From: Candidatus Thorarchaeota archaeon | GTDB lineage: Archaea; Asgardarchaeota; Heimdallarchaeia; Hodarchaeales; Hodarchaeaceae | DNA: 32,000 nt | Assembly (NCBI GenBank): GCA_048882505.1 | Contig: JBHLRO010000003.1 | Coordinates: 1-32,000 of the forward strand | Direction: 5' to 3' | Part shown: positions 658 through 27,587 of the stretch, piece after piece | Numbering within the stretch: the first letter of the stretch is position 1 | Layout: each line of letters opens with the position of its first letter | Made by a program: the position numbers and the translations under genes | The notes under the pieces: generated by a model | Seen by the model: only the letters and a program-made list of their open reading frames with translations | Databases searched by the model: none | Told to the model about the DNA's origin: nothing

Positions 658-3402
658 ATGAATCCAGAGTTATCGTATTCGTTACTTGGGTTTGAACCCA
701 TTCCTTTCTCGTTGATCCCAGCTCTAACATTCAAGGATCAGTTAGACATTATCGAGAGCATTACATTTAGTCAAAATAAATCAGTTCGCTTTATTTCCCT
801 CCTGTCTCGAAACGTATCATTAAGGATTATTCTCCAAGAAGGAGGATGGAAACCAAGCAACGTACACTCCCTTGAAATTTGGAGAAGGGATAAAACTTCG
901 GTGTTGATATGCCAAGATGAAATTGCGAACGTTTTCACGGCTCAATCTTCAAAATACTTATCCATCATTCTAGATGAGCTGTATAGAACTGGTGCATCAT
1001 ACTTAATCTTACATTCAAGTAATTCAACATTTGTATTTGCTTCTACCTCGGAAAATTCTGGATTATTAATCTGGAACCCTCTAATCCCTGCCTTACGTTT
1101 GGTTTTATTGGGCCTTTTGCTAGCAGATCCTTCAATACTTAATTTCTATACTCCAAGGAAGCGTTGGAAAACTTTAGACCGTGGAAAATCAGTTATAACA
1201 AATTTAATGAATCGTGTGTCAAATAAGAGGGCGTTGTCTAGACAAAAATGTACCAACGGAACGAACGCCCGATTTACCCAGATGATGTTTGGATTGGTTA
1301 AGGTTCAACGTAATATTCTATTTCATCTTGAACGACTATTAGGAGGTAAAGGTAAGCAAGAGGCATTACGACGAAAAGAGGGCATCGAATCTTATATTTC
1401 CAAAATTGGAACATATCTTGTAAGTAATAAAACTCTTTCTTCGGAGGAGGCATCGTTTCATGCCATCCTTCCTGGGCTTACACTTGATCATTCTTTATCG
1501 GACCTATTAGAGATACAGCTAGTAAATCTTCTTGAATATGCATGGCCATTTACGCCCAAAACGCTCGCAAAGGGGCGATATACTCCATTACCGCTTGCAG
1601 AGTCACTCGTGGTCGATATTCTGTTAACATACGAGAAAAAAGGATTTTCTCCCCCGATAAAGGACTTGCATGTGTTTGATCCTGCCATGGGAACTGGACT
1701 CTTGCTTATTATTTTCTTGGAAGGCCTAGTGTCCTTGTTACTGCTAAATTGTACCTATCTACCTCGATCATGTTCATTCATTGAGTTACGTAAACAAATT
1801 TATGATGACTGTCTATTTGGAAACGATATAGACATTGACGCTGTTGAAAACGGTCGATCTTTTCTTAACGCGTTTTGTGGATCATACCAATCTAGAGATC
1901 TGGACGGTAGCGAACTGGAAAAGTTTAGAAATCGCGATTTTGTCCGTCAATTCTTAAAATTACCCCAGAACAATGAAGAAAATAAAAAATATGATATTAT
2001 CCTTTCTAATCCACCATTTGGAGCACTGCATAGCCGATTTACACGATCGATTTATTCCCGCGAGGAAATTGTAGAACTTCAATCGCTGATTCCCGAGTTT
2101 ACTCAACGAAGGATCAATTCGTACTGTATATTTCTAGGATTAACCTTGAAGTATGTAACTCAAGTTTCGTCAGGATTGGTTGGTTTTGTAGTCGACTCCG
2201 TTTTTTTTGATTTACCCTCATATGATAACATAAGGAGTCATCTTATTAAGCAATACACCGTTTTATCAATTCTTGGACACTTCAAGTACATGGATGCCAT
2301 TGTTGACCTTGGTACTCTTGTAATAAGCAAAGAAGAACTTGAACTCAAAGATAAATCTGTTACCTGGAGGGAAACAATTAACCAAAGTAAGGTGAATGTG
2401 AATTGCAGTTACTTCCTTTCTCAACCTCATATTTCTTTAACGTACAGCCAGTTTAAACATCAATTAGAATTGCAGTTTTCCGAAACAAGATTCCTTGGCG
2501 ATATTGCAGACGTTGCCTGTGGTTTGGAATATGGTGGCTTATTGAAATCACGTTTTCTTTCGCCAGAACCTTCCAAAGATTTTTTCCCTGTTCTGGACGG
2601 TGCAAACGGTGTTCCTCATCCTTTTGTTCTCTTTTGGGTTCCCCATTGTCCCAACTCTTATGTTCGTGTCAATAAGGACTTTGAAGAACATCTAAGGAAT
2701 ACTAATCAAGATTTTTCCCCTACGGGGAAGAAAGTCCTGTTAATTTCGGGAAATCTCAAAAGGTTTACTGAACCAAAGATCATCCTCCGACAAACGGCTT
2801 CCGAATTCATTTCGGTTTATGATGATCAAGGTTATTTTGTTCTCAGAAATCTTCATGTCATTTACAATGTGACGTCCCCTTACTCCTTTGAATTAATACT
2901 AGGAATTTTGAGCTCTAGAATAGGTAAATGGATTGGAGAGGAGCTGAATATAATAAGAAAAAGGGGATTCCGTCGATATCCTCAAATTCGCGTCACTGCC
3001 TTGAAAAGATTCCCGATAATTGGACTTGATAAACAGAATGAAAAGCAAAACGAGCTTGTAAGTAGTATCGAAGAAACCGTCACCCACCTATCGTGTATCG
3101 GGCAAGAAACTGGGACTCTATTGAAGAATCTCTGGAATCAAATCCAAAATAGTAACTCACAAGCAAAAGGATTCTTTCCAAATCAAAGGCACTTTATCCA
3201 AGCGTGTTTTTCGAATAATATGCCTAGTTCCTTCCCTGTTCCGATTTCCCCTAAGATTGGCAAGCGTATTCGTGAGATATCTCAAAATTTAGCAATCTTA
3301 AAAAAGCTCCAGACGAAACTTAACTCTTCTGTCTTCCTGCTATACTCTATGCAATTCCCTGAGTTACCAAGCTCCATAAATTTGCCTATCAGTGTTCATT
3401 GA
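658..3402 (+). CDS. N6-adenine DNA methyltransferase, Eco57I/TaqI-like (gamma class), with a C-terminal target-recognition domain
   Basis: Motif X GRYTPLPLA, motif I VFDPAMGTGLLL, motif II LFGNDID, motif IV IILSNPPF, and a TaqI-C-like segment KIILRQT...VYDDQGYFVLRNLHVI...LGILSS...YPQIRVTALKRFPI. Confidence 0.88.
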   Translation: MNPELSYSLLGFEPIPFSLIPALTFKDQLDIIESITFSQNKSVRFISLLSRNVSLRIILQEGGWKPSNVHSLEIWRRDKTSVLICQDEIANVFTAQSSKYLSIILDELYRTGASYLILHSSNSTFVFASTSENSGLLIWNPLIPALRLVLLGLLLADPSILNFYTPRKRWKTLDRGKSVITNLMNRVSNKRALSRQKCTNGTNARFTQMMFGLVKVQRNILFHLERLLGGKGKQEALRRKEGIESYISKIGTYLVSNKTLSSEEASFHAILPGLTLDHSLSDLLEIQLVNLLEYAWPFTPKTLAKGRYTPLPLAESLVVDILLTYEKKGFSPPIKDLHVFDPAMGTGLLLIIFLEGLVSLLLLNCTYLPRSCSFIELRKQIYDDCLFGNDIDIDAVENGRSFLNAFCGSYQSRDLDGSELEKFRNRDFVRQFLKLPQNNEENKKYDIILSNPPFGALHSRFTRSIYSREEIVELQSLIPEFTQRRINSYCIFLGLTLKYVTQVSSGLVGFVVDSVFFDLPSYDNIRSHLIKQYTVLSILGHFKYMDAIVDLGTLVISKEELELKDKSVTWRETINQSKVNVNCSYFLSQPHISLTYSQFKHQLELQFSETRFLGDIADVACGLEYGGLLKSRFLSPEPSKDFFPVLDGANGVPHPFVLFWVPHCPNSYVRVNKDFEEHLRNTNQDFSPTGKKVLLISGNLKRFTEPKIILRQTASEFISVYDDQGYFVLRNLHVIYNVTSPYSFELILGILSSRIGKWIGEELNIIRKRGFRRYPQIRVTALKRFPIIGLDKQNEKQNELVSSIEETVTHLSCIGQETGTLLKNLWNQIQNSNSQAKGFFPNQRHFIQACFSNNMPSSFPVPISPKIGKRIREISQNLAILKKLQTKLNSSVFLLYSMQFPELPSSINLPISVH

Positions 3403-3410
3403 CCGATTTT

Positions 3411-4490
3411 TTAGGACCGCTTCTTTCTTACTCGCCTTTTTTTTCCCCTGGCCTTTTTCTTGGACCTCTGCTTACTGTCCTTCGTGGTTTTTCGCTTTGA
3501 GTCTTTGTCTTTAATTGGCTTTTTTTCATCCAAACCGACCTTCTCCTCCTCCACTCCTCTTATTACCTCTGATTTCTCACGTATTTCGTGCCCTTTCTCA
3601 CCATTTCCAGCATCTATTTCGCTTCGAATATGTCTTGATGCCTGGCGGATTACTGCTTGTATTTCCGCCACATCTTGAGGAACATTAAGCATGTTATCGA
3701 CCCGCGGGACTGGAGATGGATCGTCTTCTCTCTTGAATAGCATAAGATCTTGGATCATTGTCTGAGCTCGTTTGAGCTCTTGTCTTAGCGCCGCTGCATC
3801 AACAGTTTCCTCTAATTGACGATCTGTAAGGGATGCGCTGCTTGGTAGAACCTTCAAGGTTTGGGTCGGAATTCGCATACCAGCAGAGGTCACGAGTGCA
3901 TCAAGTACAGGTGTAAATTCCTCGAAAACGGAGGTATCAATCACATCCATTGAAATTTCATTAGAGAAAACTTGATCAAACCGTTTGGCAAGCAGCTCAG
4001 TCAATTCATCAACCGGCTCGCCATGCTCTGAATCACAGATCACAGCGACGGTGATTTCACCTATTCTCCTACAATGAATTGTAAGATCATCTGTTGAAAA
4101 TTTGTCAATACGTCTTCCGGTTACTTCCCCGAAAAGATCCAAAATTCCTGTTAAAAGCCCTGCAAAGATTGTATCAGGAAATTTCAAGCCAGAGTATCCC
4201 CTGGAAAGAAGACAGGTTCCACCTGAACTAATAAACCATACGTAATGGACAACAGACGCTTTTTCATCAACCTCGAAGGTAACGAACGAAGATGCCATTC
4301 TAACCGCTTGTGTGATATCTTCCTCTCTGATTTCCTCTCGGCCCTGGTCCTGCGCCAGATTGACAGCTTTGGTTGAAATTTCTTTGGCTCGGTGCGTTAA
4401 AAGATTATTGAGAGCGTGCACACTTTCCTTAGAAACTCTTGGATTTCCCTGCTTTTTCAGTAATTCACGAACCCTTGAAGACTGTAACAT
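3411..4490 (-). CDS. Fusion protein: archaeal histone fold, longin-like domain, linker and Lys/Arg-rich C-terminal tail
   Basis: aa 1-68 align by eye with HMf-type histones (RVRELLKKQGNPRVSKES...EISTKAVNLAQDQGREEIREEDITQA). aa 80-200 show a longin pattern (VWFISSGGTCLLSRGY...IFAGLLTGILDLFGEV...IDKFST...VAVICD...LAKRFDQVF...FEEFTPVLDALV). The protein ends SKKKARGKKRRVRKKRS. Confidence 0.85.
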   Translation of the reverse strand: MLQSSRVRELLKKQGNPRVSKESVHALNNLLTHRAKEISTKAVNLAQDQGREEIREEDITQAVRMASSFVTFEVDEKASVVHYVWFISSGGTCLLSRGYSGLKFPDTIFAGLLTGILDLFGEVTGRRIDKFSTDDLTIHCRRIGEITVAVICDSEHGEPVDELTELLAKRFDQVFSNEISMDVIDTSVFEEFTPVLDALVTSAGMRIPTQTLKVLPSSASLTDRQLEETVDAAALRQELKRAQTMIQDLMLFKREDDPSPVPRVDNMLNVPQDVAEIQAVIRQASRHIRSEIDAGNGEKGHEIREKSEVIRGVEEEKVGLDEKKPIKDKDSKRKTTKDSKQRSKKKARGKKRRVRKKRS

Positions 4491-5178
4491 TTTCTCATGC
4501 TCACAACATTACAGGATTTCGCTAGTCATGGTGTTTCAAAGTTTTTTTGCGGTGATCAAATTTCAACATTTCTTAATCTCTTTTAAACCTTAGTCTTAAT
4601 TTTACATCAATAGGTTCTGTCATCTTAACGACATTATCATTCTCTCGCAGATATGGCAGCTTCTCCTATATTCAATTTTTGATAATATCTATCTCGAAAA
4701 GTGGGTTTAGGAATGAACGCCTTTGCATGATAAGATTAAACTTCTAAGTCGCTTTTATACATTAAGGTAGAAAAAAATTAGTTTAATCAAACCTTTTGGA
4801 GATTCTTTCTAAGAATTCATCCCAGGTCGAGTGCTCATATGATTCCAACGTTGGAGACTGATACGATATCTTAATTATTTTTTTTTGTCGCTCGTAGAGA
4901 CACAGAGGTGCATTCTTGCGGAGTTTTGCTTAGTTTCCGTGTATTATCCCAGTGATAATCCAGCCTATCCATATGCCCCATATTTCTAAAACACTAATTC
5001 CAAATCATCAAAATCGCTTATTCTGTTGTTCATTCGTGCTTTGTTTAAATGATAACCTTTTTTTACCTTAATAAAGAAAATCAGAATTATACAGCGTGTT
5101 ACAGAGGGAACATCAGTGTAAACCTATTTAAATATCCTAAAGTGGATTATATACCTTGACATTCGCATACTATATCAG

Positions 5179-5577
5179 TTGAGGTGGTACTCACTGGATT
5201 TAACTAAACTTACACGGGATTTCCTTAAATTTCGAGAATTTGATTTTGTTGAGGATCAACATATAACGGGGAAAAACGAAAAACCGATCCGCCTGTCTTT
5301 TCTAATTAATGGAACTAATAATCCGTCCATTTCGGGAGAGGTTGGGAAAATTGGTGTTCTGGTCAAGGATTGGGCAAGATCTTGCGGTTACAATGTTATC
5401 TTAGAAGCAGAAAGGGTTCAAGAATTAACAGGATTAGCTAAAGTGATGGTTGTTGCAAACCGATTCTCGGCTACAGCCAGAGAACTTGCAAAAAGAATCG
5501 GGATTGTCACGTTAACTAATGGAGAGTTGGTCTCAATACGTAAAATTCACTTTTCTCCTTCCGCATTTGATCCCTAA
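5179..5577 (+). CDS. Mrr-family restriction-endonuclease-like domain protein, catalytic motif degenerate
   Basis: VKDWARSCGYNVI...KVMVVANRFSATARELAKRIGIVTLTNGEL matches the C-terminal half of the Mrr_cat pattern (K...VG...V...F(T/S)..A...A....i.L.dG.eL). The start is uncertain because the TTG overlaps a GAGGTG. Confidence 0.6.
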   Translation: MRWYSLDLTKLTRDFLKFREFDFVEDQHITGKNEKPIRLSFLINGTNNPSISGEVGKIGVLVKDWARSCGYNVILEAERVQELTGLAKVMVVANRFSATARELAKRIGIVTLTNGELVSIRKIHFSPSAFDP

Positions 5578-5659
5578 AATCAAATAGCATAAGAACTCAT
5601 ATTTTCCTAACCAAGTCTTGAATACGTTTTTTGCCAAGTCAATCCTGGACGTCAATATA

Positions 5660-6448
5660 TTACCATTGAATCAAGACACTCCTTTCTCCAGGAGGGTATA
5701 CAACCAAAAAGGAACTGGATAATCGACTTTCGTGTTCCAAAATAAATTGAATTTCTTCGATGGCCTTTTCAGGGCTATTGTTCTTTTCTGAAATGTGCGC
5801 TAAGACCGCAATCGGAGGTTGTGTTACTTTTATGAACTCTGCGGCCTGCCAATTACTGAGGTGCCCTCTAGGACTTAACAGACGATACTTCAGGTGCTCA
5901 GGGTAGTCACTACCTAAAAGCATGTCAAAAGAATGGTTTGCTTCAATTATAAGAGTTTTGACATTACGAAATCCATCCAAAACATACGGAGAGGGAAAGC
6001 CACAATCGCAAATATACCCCAGAAGATGATCCCCCTGATAACTGATTCGAAACCCAAGGGGATTTACCCCGTCGTGGGGAATTTCATAAGGTAAAATCTC
6101 CACCCCTTCAATGCTGAATTCTTCTCCTACTTCTATAAATTCAGCATCAATGGGGCCCGTCTTCTTGCTAATCATTTCATAAGTTTCGTAGGTTAAATAG
6201 CATTTTAACCCATAGTTTTTTGCTAATGTCTTTATTCCTTTGATGTGATCACCGTGTTCATGTGATACAACGATACCATCCAAAGATTTGATATTCTCTC
6301 CAATTTCCTCCAATTGCTTTTTTATTTTTCGTGTACTAATACCAGCATCTATCAGAAAAGATACGGAACCAATTCGTACGTAGGTTGCATTCCCCTTGCT
6401 CGTTGACGCCAAAACACAAAATTTAAACACATACCAATCCCCCATCAA
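5660..6448 (-). CDS. MBL-fold metallo-hydrolase, YycJ/WalJ-like
   Basis: LASTSKGNATYV, LIDAGIS, SHEHGDH (HxHxDH), IPHDG, LIIEANH, GHLSN and AHISEKNN motifs. Confidence 0.92.
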   Translation of the reverse strand: MMGDWYVFKFCVLASTSKGNATYVRIGSVSFLIDAGISTRKIKKQLEEIGENIKSLDGIVVSHEHGDHIKGIKTLAKNYGLKCYLTYETYEMISKKTGPIDAEFIEVGEEFSIEGVEILPYEIPHDGVNPLGFRISYQGDHLLGYICDCGFPSPYVLDGFRNVKTLIIEANHSFDMLLGSDYPEHLKYRLLSPRGHLSNWQAAEFIKVTQPPIAVLAHISEKNNSPEKAIEEIQFILEHESRLSSSFLVVYPPGERSVLIQW

Positions 6449-11518: not shown

Positions 11519-11974
11519 ATGATGGAAGATAGAAGGGTAATATTGGCAAACAAAATTCAGCAGGTGATGACGGATGTGGAGAATCCGCTTTATCTCTCAA
11601 TCATTGATAACAGTGGTGGGGCTTTATTTTCTAAGTCATTTAGGGATGAAAACGAGCTAGATGCCCAACACATTGGATTTTTCCTCTCTGCGATGATTAA
11701 ATTCTGTGATTACCTCTTTGATAACCGCTTTAACCGGTTAAAGATCGGTCATTACTATCTAACATTGATTGAACAGGAAAATTTCTTTTATTGCTACGTA
11801 TATCAAGGAAGATCCTATGAAGGCCGAATGCGACTCGCTCGATTCTCAAGGTTATTAAAGAAGTTCCAAAATGTTTGGGAAGCTCTGAATGCGTATCATA
11901 AAACTGGACGAATCCTTTCCGATTCTATGATAGCTCAACTCGATTTAATATCTGCGGAAATATTCCAAAACTAA
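11519..11974 (+). CDS. Stand-alone longin-like domain protein (Asgard type)
   Basis: LYLSIIDNSGGALFSKSF...QHIGFFLSAMIKFCDYLF...RLKIGHYYLTL...FYCYVYQG...LARFSRLL...LDLISAEIF follows the longin beta-beta-alpha-beta-beta-beta-alpha-alpha pattern. Confidence 0.7.
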   Translation: MMEDRRVILANKIQQVMTDVENPLYLSIIDNSGGALFSKSFRDENELDAQHIGFFLSAMIKFCDYLFDNRFNRLKIGHYYLTLIEQENFFYCYVYQGRSYEGRMRLARFSRLLKKFQNVWEALNAYHKTGRILSDSMIAQLDLISAEIFQN

Positions 11975-24293: not shown

Positions 24294-25373
24294 TTAGATG
24301 GGGACGAAGGTTTCGTCTTTGGAAATTGACTTAATCAGGTTCACGACCAAATTAACGCAATTTTCCACGTCATCTAAACTGATAACCTCACTAGCAGTGT
24401 GCATATAGCGATTCGGAATACTTACTAGGGCTGTAGCTGCTCCAACTAATTGAAGAGCATTGGCATCTGTACCTGTTCCCCTATGTGCAGCTTTTCTTTG
24501 ATAGGGTATATTAAGTTCTTCAGCGAGCTTAATGATCTTTTGAAATAAGTTGGGGTTTATATTCGGACCTACCGAGATAATTGGGCCCTGACCAAGCTTG
24601 GTATCGCCCACTAGCTTTTTCTTGATTTCTGGTGCATCCGCCGCATGTCCGACATCAAAAGCAATCCCTACCTCTGGTCTTATACTTCTTGCTGCCACTG
24701 TGGCACCACGCATCCCGATCTCTTCTTGTACTGAACTTACTCCATATACTCCTGCAAAGAACTGCTTATCACTGGAAAGTTCTTTCATTATTTCCATTGT
24801 GATAAAGGCACCGATCGCGTCATCAAAGCCAGCCGAGGCTGCATAGTTATGGTCTCCAAGGCGTTGGTATCCGTGATCAAAAACCGCAAAATCACCGATT
24901 TCAACCTTTGATTCTGCTTCCTCCTTATTATGACATCCAATGTCTATGAAGATCTTCTCGATGTCAGGAGATTTTTTGCGTTCTTCTGGTTTTATTATGT
25001 GAATTGGCTTCCTGCCAATAACTCCAGGTATCGCGCCAGTTTTTCCCCAAACTTTCACTCTTTTACCTGCTAATGTGGACGGGTCAAATCCACCCAACGG
25101 TAAGAACCAAAGGAATCCATTTTTATCGATATAACTAATTTGGAACCCGATCTGGTCGATATGTCCTACAAGCATAACCTTGGTTGGTGATTCTGGATTG
25201 ATCACTGCGATTAGATTCCCAACTCGATCTCCGTAAAGCTGGTCTAAATTCGCTTCCGACTGCAGATAATCCTTGATCAAGCGTTGGGCGGAAAATTCGT
25301 ATCCCGTGGCCCTCGGTGTTGAGAGCAATTGTTTCAGAAACCCCTCATTTATGGTGTATGCCAATATGATCAC
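24294..25373 (-). CDS. M42-family (TET-like) metallopeptidase
   Basis: GNLIA, GHIDQIG, AGFDDAIG, VQEEIGMRGA, AFDV and RYMHTASE motifs. Confidence 0.92.
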   Translation of the reverse strand: MIILAYTINEGFLKQLLSTPRATGYEFSAQRLIKDYLQSEANLDQLYGDRVGNLIAVINPESPTKVMLVGHIDQIGFQISYIDKNGFLWFLPLGGFDPSTLAGKRVKVWGKTGAIPGVIGRKPIHIIKPEERKKSPDIEKIFIDIGCHNKEEAESKVEIGDFAVFDHGYQRLGDHNYAASAGFDDAIGAFITMEIMKELSSDKQFFAGVYGVSSVQEEIGMRGATVAARSIRPEVGIAFDVGHAADAPEIKKKLVGDTKLGQGPIISVGPNINPNLFQKIIKLAEELNIPYQRKAAHRGTGTDANALQLVGAATALVSIPNRYMHTASEVISLDDVENCVNLVVNLIKSISKDETFVPI

Positions 25374-25439
25374 GTTTTAGGTGATCGAGTAGTGAAACAA
25401 AGCTATCTTTAAATCCAATTGTATTGGAAGTGGACGTTT

Positions 25440-26081
25440 TTACGGCAGACGAAGCGGGAGTGCATTCGATTCCCTGTTCTGAGATTGTAATTTCTGTTTA
25501 TGAATCAAACTGTTAATTATTTCAGTTGAAAGTAATCTAAACGTCTCGTCGATATTGACATTCTCCTTGGAGGATGTTTCAACATAATGAATGGAAAAAC
25601 CATGTGTTTCCTGAACTAATCGCGATAATCGTTTGGCGTACTCAATCCCCTGCGCTGTAGAGACCTGTCCATGATATGATATCATCCCGCGAAGATCGCA
25701 CTTCGCACCCACCAGCATTAATGGGCGCTCCCCTTGGCCGTTCAGTTTCCAAAATGAGCTAATCCATTCTTCAACATTCATGAATGAATTAGGGTTTGTT
25801 ATGTCAAAAAAGCATAACGCCGCGACTGCTCCTCGATAATAGAGGTTGCTTACAACCTTAAACCGTGGTTGGCCAGCTAGGTCCCAAATCTGATATTTAA
25901 TTAGATATTCTGTTTTTGTTGGCCCGTATTCGATTTTGACTTCTTTTGCGGCAAAATCCGCTCCCAAAGTCATTAAGTATTGAGCTTGGAATGTATCACC
26001 CAACCAAACTCTTCTGAACGAACTTTTACCTACTCCACCATCTCCAACCAATACAATTTTCGCTCGAAGAACTTTTACCAT
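25440..26081 (-). CDS. Rab-like small GTPase (Ras superfamily)
   Basis: G1 GDGGVGKS, G2 YLMTLGADF, G3 WDLAGQ, YYRGA, G4 VGAKCD and G5 ETSSK. SD-like GAGGGT upstream. Confidence 0.93.
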   Translation of the reverse strand: MVKVLRAKIVLVGDGGVGKSSFRRVWLGDTFQAQYLMTLGADFAAKEVKIEYGPTKTEYLIKYQIWDLAGQPRFKVVSNLYYRGAVAALCFFDITNPNSFMNVEEWISSFWKLNGQGERPLMLVGAKCDLRGMISYHGQVSTAQGIEYAKRLSRLVQETHGFSIHYVETSSKENVNIDETFRLLSTEIINSLIHKQKLQSQNRESNALPLRLP

Positions 26082-26507
26082 CAGTAACCCTCATTTTAAA
26101 CCAGAAAAATTGCTTTTTATTTACTCATCTTTCCGATCTTACTCAAGTTCATAGTTCCGGATCAATGGCCTATAATAGGCTTCCCATATGTACCTTAAGT
26201 GGTTTAATTCATTCACGATCGGATATTTCAGGTTTGCAAATGACTTTTTATTTCAAATTTATCGTTCCTACTCGTTTTTTTTTCTCCTCCCGATAATTTG
26301 GAAAGAGAAAAAGGTGAAAATAAGGTAAAATCTGGCTTTTTCTCCTCACATTAGGGGGATTATGATCATTCTGATCATGAATGGAGTGTGAACTGCTGCA
26401 AGATTTGTGGGTCAAGGTCGGGCTTCCGTTCTTGAATTTTCGATCCCTAAAGTACTGAACAATCAAAAACCAGCAGAAATTGGAGACCCATTACCATTTC
26501 ATGGATT

Positions 26508-27587
26508 TCAAACTTCATCTAATCCCCCCCATGAACTGACAAATTCCCACAAGGTCTTATAGAGATTTGCAAAGACAGTTAGGTAAGCTACTTCGAATCC
26601 ATGACTGTTCTTCCGAATATGCCCAATACAAGCGGTTTGAGGACTAGCACCAATGCTCCCTACTTGACCTGCATCACTCCCACTTGTAGTATAGACAAGG
26701 TGTTGAAGCTCAGTACCTACATTTTTCGCCGCATCAGACAATGCCTGGTTCAACTTGGGGCTGTAGAAATATCCCCGATCACGAACCCTAATTCCAGGTC
26801 TATCATCTAGCTCCGTAGGTGATTCAGATGCGATTGGACAACCGTCCACAGCAATGAAGTAGGTCGGAGTTAGTGATTGTGCCAAGTGTTTTGCTCCAAA
26901 GCAACCGATCTCCTCTCTGGTCGTAAATGCAATTATAAGATTCACAACTGGAGTAACGTTCTTTGTTTTTAGGGTTTTTAATATTTGGAGTAGAATAGCG
27001 ACCCCTATTTTATCATCGAATGTCCACGCCCCTATCATTGGATTTGATTCTTCTCCAAAAAATATGGGCCCTCTTTCCGATTGACTCAGAGTAATCAGAG
27101 TTCCAGGTTTAACGCCATAACCTTTCAAACTTTCGGGAGGCAATCCAGTGATAACAGCAGTTTCTCTCCACTCTAATTTCTGTGTACCACCTGCGGCGTG
27201 TCCTGATCCCATCGCCGTAACACCAGAAATCGTCGCATTATCACCAAAGACGTCAACTGGACGTTCCCCATATTTCCATGTTAATGATCCTCCTATCCTC
27301 TCAACTCCTAGTGTACCATCACCATTAATTTTTGTTACCATTAATCCGATTTCATCTGTATGTGATGCCAAACAACAAGTTTCCTCACTTTGCTTCTTGC
27401 CTGGTATTTGAACATAGACATTCCCTGCCGAATCCTTCTGGGGATTATATCCCCACTCATTACACTTTCGGTAAATGTGATCAGCTATCTTGTCTTCCAT
27501 TCCCGAAGGAGAAGGAATAGTAAGCAATTCGGTGAATTGTTGGATTATTGCGCTCTGCTTGATCTGCTCATATCTACTAGATTCCAT
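26508..27587 (-). CDS. M42-family metallopeptidase, second divergent paralog
   Basis: DSAGNVY, SHTDEIG, TFDDKIG, TREEIG, AVDG, GSDAG and NSHGFE motifs. Confidence 0.9.
   Translation of the reverse strand: MESSRYEQIKQSAIIQQFTELLTIPSPSGMEDKIADHIYRKCNEWGYNPQKDSAGNVYVQIPGKKQSEETCCLASHTDEIGLMVTKINGDGTLGVERIGGSLTWKYGERPVDVFGDNATISGVTAMGSGHAAGGTQKLEWRETAVITGLPPESLKGYGVKPGTLITLSQSERGPIFFGEESNPMIGAWTFDDKIGVAILLQILKTLKTKNVTPVVNLIIAFTTREEIGCFGAKHLAQSLTPTYFIAVDGCPIASESPTELDDRPGIRVRDRGYFYSPKLNQALSDAAKNVGTELQHLVYTTSGSDAGQVGSIGASPQTACIGHIRKNSHGFEVAYLTVFANLYKTLWEFVSSWGGLDEV

Follow-up and report, generated by a model that had tools for sequence, protein, structure and literature searches.

What does a protein do that joins a histone fold to a longin domain in one polypeptide? 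The question is raised by an open reading frame (ORF), here called P0001, in a 32,000-nucleotide stretch of DNA from a Hodarchaeales archaeon (Candidatus Thorarchaeota archaeon, GenBank assembly GCA_048882505.1, contig JBHLRO010000003.1, positions 1 to 32,000), which we refer to as the window. The ORF occupies 3411..4490 on the (-) strand and encodes 359 residues (aa) plus a stop codon. The protein divides into four: a histone fold of the nucleosomal type, followed by a longin domain, two helices and a polybasic tail. This composition had been put forward in an original prediction made from the letters of the window, and it is borne out here, with coordinates that were right to within a few residues. 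The P0001 family thereby unites two toolkits that figure most in discussions of eukaryogenesis, namely histone chromatin and longin/small-GTPase trafficking. Our tentative answer, drawn from sequence comparison and structural models, is that P0001 could be a chromatin adaptor or capstone that would dimerise through its longin domain and would not polymerise.

The fusion has a history in print. The original prediction knew of no described histone-longin fusion, yet a 2024 review, 'Nucleosomes at the Dawn of Eukaryotes' (Genome Biol Evol, PMC10919886), notes, in one sentence and a figure, proteins of the Hodarchaeales in which a histone fold is joined to a Roadblock/LC7 domain, with function not known. 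That group is almost certainly the P0001 family, since, the one histone doublet aside, no long ORF of the genome other than P0001 contains a histone fold. As far as the accessible part of the review goes, the fusion is thus already known but not analysed there, and the architecture is catalogued in part: it is printed as histone-Roadblock/LC7, and its longin identity is not given in that text. Literature searches for a histone fold together with a longin in Asgard archaea turned up no paper, and three histone catalogues (PMC11390915, PMC13260811 and bioRxiv 10.64898/2026.07.02.735847) neither mention the fusion nor contain the word 'longin'. HMpC, the 'lineage-specific' histone of a cultured Hodarchaeales strain (bioRxiv 10.64898/2026.07.02.735847), was considered as the fusion and rejected, being a 72-aa histone instead. 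What the present analysis adds to the printed record is the assignment of a true longin, the loss of polymerisation and L2 residues, a predicted longin dimer and a tail that is a later, clade-specific acquisition.

A conserved fusion gene of the Hodarchaeales

A word-indexed search of 5.8 billion proteins returned 66 homologues of P0001, which are 53-87% identical to it and, in all but four cases, 330-499 aa long. Nearly all come from Hodarchaeales/Heimdall metagenome-assembled genomes (MAGs) of many projects, a closed 3.16-Mb genome among them, and more than 60 independent assemblies carry the histone fold-longin architecture. The junction between the two domains is bridged with 0 differences by X3 record 7 (4145-4700), a contig that stems from a different study, and is covered at 4240-4554 by a contig from another sample (X2 record 4). 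Within the fusion ORF, 34 of the 37 listed variant sites fall at third-codon positions, and the linker between histone fold and longin is in frame and free of stops. The worry, voiced in the original prediction, that an assembly chimera or a frameshift had joined a histone gene to a longin gene is ruled out by the independent homologues, the bridging contigs and the third-codon variation, and its probability is negligible. The fusion gene is real and conserved in the Hodarchaeales.

An in-frame TAA at 4509-4511 rules out an upstream extension of the ORF, and the same MLQSS start is found in P0001 and its two closest homologues. In a survey of 301 Asgard genomes the full-length fusion is present in 17 of the 20 species of the window's own family (split over two contigs in one) and in 2/2 of the second family sampled within that order (expectation value (E) ~1e-70); outside the Hodarchaeales, the surveyed genomes hold only plain histones or stand-alone longins, and no fusion. 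Public annotations of the homologues read only "histone", "histone-like protein" or "hypothetical", and the run searches listed no RNA dataset with the fusion gene.

A histone fold that keeps its handshake face

The histone fold (aa 1-66; 4293..4490, (-) strand) is of the nucleosomal type, with helices α1 (4-13), α2 (21-48) and a full-length α3 (56-66), as delineated by Pfam, NCBIfam, PDB and the model. Residues 2-63 match PF00808 (E 2e-8), the NCBIfam archaea_histone model NF043032 gives 54.5 bits against a cut-off of 50, and sequence matches in the PDB include 9qv5 (E 2e-6), with HPhA and HMfA/B among those at 2e-6 to 4e-4. An AlphaFold2 model built on an alignment of 41 family members places the histone helices at a pLDDT (predicted local distance difference test) of 81-89, with 11 residues in α3, and the modelled fold superposes on HPhA (1ku5) with a Z of 10.0 and a root-mean-square deviation of 0.9 Å over 65 residues. 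The HMf-type fold that had been read from the sequence at the N terminus is thus upheld.

Residue conservation in the family reveals which faces of the fold are kept. In the handshake face L27 and A42 are invariant, and conservation is 90% or higher at A26, N28, L30, A35, A39 and V43. The L1 arginine ('RVS', R18) is present in 40/41 family members, and the R-D pair (RxTxxxxD motif) is represented by R51 in 33 and by D58 in 40. The fold carries a net charge of +3 and a pI of 9.8, compared with +4 to +6 for the genome's canonical histones. Alignment with the latter shows where the fusion departs from them, the canonical 'A[KR]HSGRKTVKESDI[KR]LA' corresponding to 'AQDQGREEIREEDITQAV' in the fusion. 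The dimer-dimer His position of α2, which is H in the canonical paralogues, is E or D in 35/41 members, and the dimer-dimer Leu position of α3, L in the canonical paralogues, is Q, R, K or Y in 38/41. In loop L2 an acidic residue (D or E) takes the Lys position in 29/41, and the Thr position is E in 23/41 and T in 16/41; P0001 itself reads R-E-E here, where all canonical histones of the genome read RKT or RRT. We take the roles of these residues from what is known of the HMfB hypernucleosome, in which His and Leu build the dimer-dimer four-helix bundle that tetramers and hypernucleosomes require, and the L2 Lys-Thr pair contacts DNA. Because the handshake face and the L1 arginine are retained and the fold is basic, while His/Leu and the L2 residues are replaced, the fold seems fit for pairing with a second histone fold and for contacting DNA via α1/L1, and unfit for polymerisation.

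The same genome holds six further histone singlets and one doublet. Among them are a histone of 76 aa whose N-terminal tail is basic (MSKRTKARRKSG...; L006, G000:C2:335566-335742) and the 143-aa doublet (L003/L005, G000:C32:6946-7356), both types having been described previously for the Hodarchaeales.

The middle domain is modelled as a true longin

A weakly conserved coil of low model confidence (aa 67-79; 4254..4292, (-) strand; net charge about -2), defined by model and alignment, leads from the histone fold into the longin domain (aa 80-203; 3882..4253, (-) strand), which is delimited by the model, structure matches and a chain of profiles. The domain is acidic (net -11) and is the best-conserved part of the protein, with a mean identity to P0001 of 76% against 53% for the histone fold and 72% for helix A. 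Its surface loops SYSGLxFPDT and EVTGR are very highly conserved. DSSP assigns strands at 80-88 and 93-98, a helix at 106-124, strands at 130-132, 137-143 and 146-152 and helices at 158-179 and 186-202 of the AlphaFold2 model (pLDDT 78-90), and this order, ββαβββαα, is exactly that of a longin.

Structure comparison of the model points the same way. Foldseek against the PDB retrieves sigma-adaptins, zeta-COP, the VAMP7 longin, TRAPP Bet5/Trs23, Fuzzy and Mon1-Ccz1 at E 1e-5 to 1e-4, and a VIA search, which is independent of Foldseek, retrieves the first longin domain (LD1) of Fuzzy (7q3d_C, Z 14.3, 122 aa, 2.4 Å), the VAMP7 longin (4afi_B, Z 13.8), Trs23 (3cue_A, Z 13.3), 2dmw (Z 13.3) and Sec22 (3egd_C, Z 12.8), the alignments spanning 116-127 residues within aa 74-210. 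The longin-like domain that the original prediction had placed at aa ~80-200 is thereby supported. Assignment to a single eukaryotic longin subfamily was rejected, the top VIA scores being tied within about 1.5 Z.

At the level of sequence, neither Pfam nor NCBIfam gives a direct longin match to P0001 (aa 70-215), and the profile of the family's longin alignment (A2) finds only noise among PDB sequences (E ~1), so the longin call rests on structure together with a transitive profile chain. Scanned exhaustively by HMMER with P0001, a set of 1.84 billion representatives yields only 34 relatives, that is, about a dozen histone-longin clusters and some 20 stand-alone longins (query 80-215), the latter reached at E 3e-9 to 5e-4. 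When the alignment of these stand-alone relatives (A5) is compared with A2, hhalign returns a probability of 99.8% and an E of 4.5e-30; the A5 profile in turn matches TRAPPC1/Bet5 at E 2e-5 and VAMP7 weakly, and P0093, one of the stand-alone relatives, exceeds the cut-off of Fuz_longin_1 (PF19036) with 28.5 bits against 26.1.

Roadblock/LC7 domains have the topology α-β-β-α-β-β-β, with an N-terminal helix and without a C-terminal helix pair. The P0001 domain opens with a strand after the coil linker and closes with two helices, and Roadblock/LC7 identity was rejected. Roadblock/LC7 structures align to aa 77-181 only (89-104 residues, Z 9.8-11.4, compared with Z 12-14 for longins), and Pfam Robl_LC7 has no match to P0001. 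Longin is the better name because both the topology and the structure matches favour it, and by its model the middle domain is a true longin, not a roadblock.

A predicted homodimer

Dimer prediction was carried out in three runs on two copies of aa 1-255, along with 3 controls. The homodimer scores 0.60, compared with 0.07 for the best of the 3 controls; among proteins of solved structure, 20 of 30 one-chain pairs and 1 of 23 single chains reach the mark for this score. At least 85% of the contacts agree between the runs, with a partner pLDDT of 60 or more. Residues 102-124 (α1), 126-136 (β3), 138 and 151 make up the confident interface, and P0001 is accordingly predicted to pair through longin α1/β3, which is the classic mode of longin and roadblock dimers.

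Helices, tail and the deeper family

Behind the longin domain, alignment and model define two helices, both of lower model confidence than the histone and longin domains. Helix A (aa 222-250, model helix 223-249; 3741..3827, (-) strand) is conserved, and its motif LxxExIExxVxxAALRxEL...LPxF persists even in the deepest members of the family. Helix B (aa 272-317; 3540..3677, (-) strand) is conserved at its start (PDVxEIKAVLRQA) and variable in the rest. Over aa 200-359 no Pfam Synaptobrevin or SNARE match appears at E up to 10.

The C terminus is a disordered polybasic tail by alignment and model (aa 331-359; 3414..3500, (-) strand) with a net charge of +17 over 29 aa and a pI of 12. Its composition is conserved and its sequence is not: the last 30 aa are basic in 41/41 aligned close members, with net charges of +8 to +21. 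In two proteins from Hodarchaeales MAGs, P0041 (499 aa) and P0040 (453 aa), the tail has grown into over 100 residues made of repeats of the type KKPVKK(T/A)T, KKPVKKTT-like in P0041, which are reminiscent of linker-histone or AlgP-like tails. Such a pattern is typical of DNA-condensing tails rather than of a short membrane anchor, and the P0001 C terminus contains no hydrophobic, transmembrane or lipidation segment. Histone fold, longin and helix A are all retained in the deep members P0068-P0078 and P0080 (= HeimC3_22820, Heimdall LC_3). Combined into a profile, the N-terminal regions of six deep members match archaeal histones at E 1.3e-9, most of the six being without a significant Pfam histone match individually.

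A model for P0001 and its alternatives

A speculative scheme for P0001 can be assembled from these parts. The longin dimer would bring two histone folds close together, and these could either form one handshake pair or each pair with a free canonical histone. The histone pair, helped by the two basic, H1-like tails, would then sit on DNA, and since a P0001 pair would be unable to extend a hypernucleosome, it would do so as a stand-alone unit or as a capstone. The acidic and highly conserved longin platform would be displayed to a partner. To our knowledge every characterised longin or roadblock dimer is a GTPase platform, and by analogy this partner would most likely be a small Ras-superfamily GTPase or its regulator; the link of P0001 to small GTPases or membranes that the original prediction had suggested is one that we likewise infer. 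The scheme also draws on two observations detailed below, the winged helix-turn-helix fusions among the nearest stand-alone longin relatives and the adjacency of a few longin and Ras-family genes in the genome. If the scheme is true, a chromatin capstone or adaptor of this kind would represent a new way of decorating archaeal chromatin, and if P0001 recruits a GTPase, a link between chromatin and GTPase signalling would have existed before the nucleus did.

Several observations weigh against this tentative adaptor or capstone model. The histone fold is not among the confident dimer contacts, and the many extra contacts are of low confidence and appear in only two of the three runs, so pairing of the histone folds is not claimed from the dimer prediction. 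The passing dimer score may itself be, to some extent, an echo of the likeness to solved longin/roadblock dimers, and the share of invariant residues that falls in the predicted interface is not significantly above expectation (10, with 6.6 expected; p = 0.075). The loss of the L2 Lys/Thr together with an acidic L2 argues against strong DNA binding of the histone type. Most of the deep-branching members lack a basic tail and end in acidic residues, whereas the close members are all basic, so by sequence the polybasic tail is a later, clade-specific addition and a tail-dependent role on DNA cannot be ancestral to the family. Finally, no GTPase gene is linked to the fusion gene, the nearest lying 21 kb off, and the GTPases found within 6 kb of two distant homologues are about what chance would give at ~51 genes per genome; these neighbourhoods were therefore left unused as evidence.

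An alternative that we hold to be rather unlikely is a GTPase or membrane scaffold without a role in chromatin, in which the fold would be a mere dimeriser, as in TAFs, NF-Y, CENP-S/X and SOS, the tail would bind anionic lipids and the longin dimer would regulate or dock a small GTPase. The L2 DNA contacts and the tetramer interface, now acidic or polar, would suit such a protein, as would a longin conserved far above the histone fold (76% against 53%) whose structure matches are GTPase-platform complexes. The genome has 51 Ras-family and 32 longin-profile matches with modest adjacency, 4 of the 32 longins lying less than 1 kb from a Ras-family gene (1.1 expected) and one frame fusing both. 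Lokiarchaeal Rab-GTPase-histone fusions and an analogy to lipid binding by SOS have, moreover, been described by Schwab et al. 2024 (PMC11390915). On the other hand, the fold is still basic (pI 9.8) and has its L1 arginine in 40/41 members, and the tail is long, K/P/T-rich and expandable by repeats, with no hydrophobic or lipidation motif, which places it nearer to DNA-binding tails than to membrane anchors. There is no transmembrane segment in P0001 and no conserved GTPase neighbour. The SOS analogy, which the original prediction had also drawn, is weak, as a tandem histone domain in SOS stands against a single archaeal nucleosomal-type fold in P0001.

Similarly doubtful is an architectural DNA bridger or compactor with no signalling partner, in which the handshake and longin α1/β3 interfaces and H1-like tails would cross-link duplexes or hypernucleosomes, as in the coiled-coil, Methanococcales and phage 'bridging' histones to which it may be likened. 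According to the accessible part of PMC12678787, histone folds are obligate dimers, and together with the predicted longin dimer this means that each chain would probably have two interfaces. The tails are strongly basic, and a precedent exists in histones that a C-terminal oligomerisation domain converts to bridgers (PMC11390915). However, the conservation of the loops SYSGLxFPDT and EVTGR exceeds the need of a dimer interface and suggests an additional partner, the deep members of the family are without the basic tail, and the gene is not among the histones given for the cultured Hodarchaeales strain in bioRxiv 10.64898/2026.07.02.735847.

A one-component-like regulator, whose longin would sense a ligand or partner and switch DNA binding of the fold and tail, appears improbable. 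We know of no histone fold that acts as a sequence-specific regulator in archaea, and no ligand-binding pocket or regulon is known for P0001. The parallel lies with archaeal fusions of longins to winged helix-turn-helix (wHTH) domains of the ArsR, TrmB and HTH_47 types, which occur among the closest stand-alone relatives and the structural neighbours. Thus P0093 combines its Fuz_longin_1 match of 28.5 bits with a wHTH, P0084 has an HTH_5 match (21.7 bits), ESM Atlas longin clusters carry TrmB (52% of members) and HTH_47, and AFDB contains 'ArsR family' entries with an N-terminal longin. The wHTH is nevertheless found in a minority of relatives only, and their C-terminal regions are heterogeneous. 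More broadly, the structural neighbours in ESM Atlas and AFDB are archaeal longins fused to GTPases, V4R, receiver and wHTH (TrmB, ArsR, HTH_47) domains, and none of the top 30 entries of the AFDB cluster search covers the histone fold and longin together. These longin fusions fit the picture of domain shuffling drawn in bioRxiv 10.1101/2020.10.19.343400, and the Asgard NPRL2-like longins fused to two-component modules in the same work also speak for a regulator.

Least probable among the functional readings, and in our view a long shot, is that the DNA-tethered longin dimer would itself be a chromatin-bound guanine nucleotide exchange factor, GTPase-activating protein or docking site for one of the ~50 Ras-superfamily GTPases. 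Were it true, a chromatin-bound GTPase regulator would centre a GTPase signal on the nucleoid of a cell that has no nucleus.

Genomic context

The fusion gene is monocistronic, convergent with a methylase gene (658-3402) and divergent from an Mrr_cat-like ORF (5179-5577). The 688 bp between it and the divergent ORF (4491..5178) are non-coding and should hold the promoter; they contain only ORFs of 39 aa or less. This region is nearly identical in the closest relative, L012, and corresponds to ~690-1040 bp in L011 and DRR851344 and to 188 bp in L010; its short motif TGTAACACGC is also present in L011. An RNA element is not proposed here, as the 688 nt fold worse than their own shuffles (z = +3.4) and Rfam over 3000-5700 gives only a chance match to a long non-coding RNA (E 0.92). 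A tRNA scan of the window found none.

The methylase (658-3402, (+) strand) has 914 aa, is of the Eco57I/N6_Mtase/TaqI_C type and contains an NPPF motif, and directly before it lies the C terminus of a PAS/HATPase sensor kinase (1-657, (+) strand), a pair that adjoins the fusion gene in close relatives only. On the other side, the 132-aa ORF at 5179-5577 (+) has a marginal Mrr_cat match (22.3 bits, cut-off 21) and occupies the same place in L011, L012 and DRR851344. It is followed by a metallo-β-lactamase (MBL)-fold protein (5660-6448, (-) strand) with a sub-threshold match to Anti-Pycsar Apyc1 (29.6 bits, cut-off 50), an annotation that its orthologues in L011 and L012 likewise bear. The order GNAT, Amidohydro_2, MBL, Mrr-like, fusion, methylase and PAS kinase recurs in L011 (with an insertion), L012 and DRR851344, and is found neither at the closed-genome locus L010 nor in four deeper homologues. 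An operon or cassette of methylase, fusion and Mrr-like genes was rejected because the order is confined to close relatives and the genes are convergent or divergent; the shared order is read as inheritance, not as a functional cassette. Synteny is lost beyond the close relatives, and no conserved GTPase neighbour is seen among the homologue loci examined.

Elsewhere in the window, a Ras/Roc-type small GTPase (25440-26081, 133.6 bits) lies between two M42 aminopeptidase paralogues (24294-25373 and 26508-27587, each exactly 359 aa), all within 24294-27587 on the (-) strand. A 151-aa ORF at 11519-11974 (+) has no Pfam match and a weak match to the A5 longin profile (E 7.6e-4 at 11597-11797). In the wider genome, a 327-aa frame at G000:C13:92316-93158 (+) shows both Ras-family and longin-profile matches, and at three other places a longin gene has a Ras-family gene no more than 1 kb away (C13:56075-57052, C6:53336-54704 and C9:62636-64479).

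Comparison with known systems

The group noted in PMC10919886 shares with P0001 the host order and the two-domain idea; in its accessible text it is labelled Roadblock/LC7, and neither a tail, nor the lost tetramer and L2 residues, nor a dimer, nor tail-less members are described there. With the canonical histones (HMfB, HPhA and the Hodarchaeal HHoB, PDB 9qv5) P0001 has in common the fold, a full α3, the L1 'RVS' arginine, the R-D pair and the handshake face. Those proteins have about 70 aa, in contrast to the 359 of P0001, which has the His/Leu and Lys-Thr residues replaced and carries a longin, helices and a basic tail in addition.

Among longins (Fuzzy/Mon1 LD1, VAMP7/Sec22, TRAPPC1/Bet5, TRAPPC4/Trs23, sigma/mu adaptins and the Lokiarchaeal Roadblock-Longin protein 8yqg), P0001 matches the topology and, by prediction, the α1/β3 mode of dimerisation. 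It differs from them in having a fused histone fold and no SNARE motif, transmembrane segment, DENN or GTPase domain. In the R-SNARE longins VAMP7, Sec22 and Ykt6 the longin is followed by a SNARE motif and a membrane anchor, and P0001 carries neither.

SOS, a eukaryotic Ras guanine nucleotide exchange factor, contains a lipid-binding tandem H2A/H2B-like histone pseudo-dimer. It resembles P0001 in placing a histone fold within a protein of the GTPase-regulation world, and differs in that the fold of P0001 is single, with no sequence relation detected between the two. Capstone histone variants with an impaired tetramerisation interface are said to have been presented by Stevens et al. in PNAS in 2020. 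Like P0001 they are histone paralogues with an impaired tetramerisation interface, expected to end the growth of hypernucleosomes; they are stand-alone proteins of about 70 aa, while the capstone behaviour of P0001 is suggested by its residues only. In the Rab-GTPase histones (PMC11390915) an N-terminal GTPase precedes a C-terminal, α3-truncated (face-to-face-like) fold, whereas P0001 has an N-terminal fold with a full α3 and no GTPase domain, but both represent an Asgard-specific joining of a histone fold with a small-GTPase/trafficking module.

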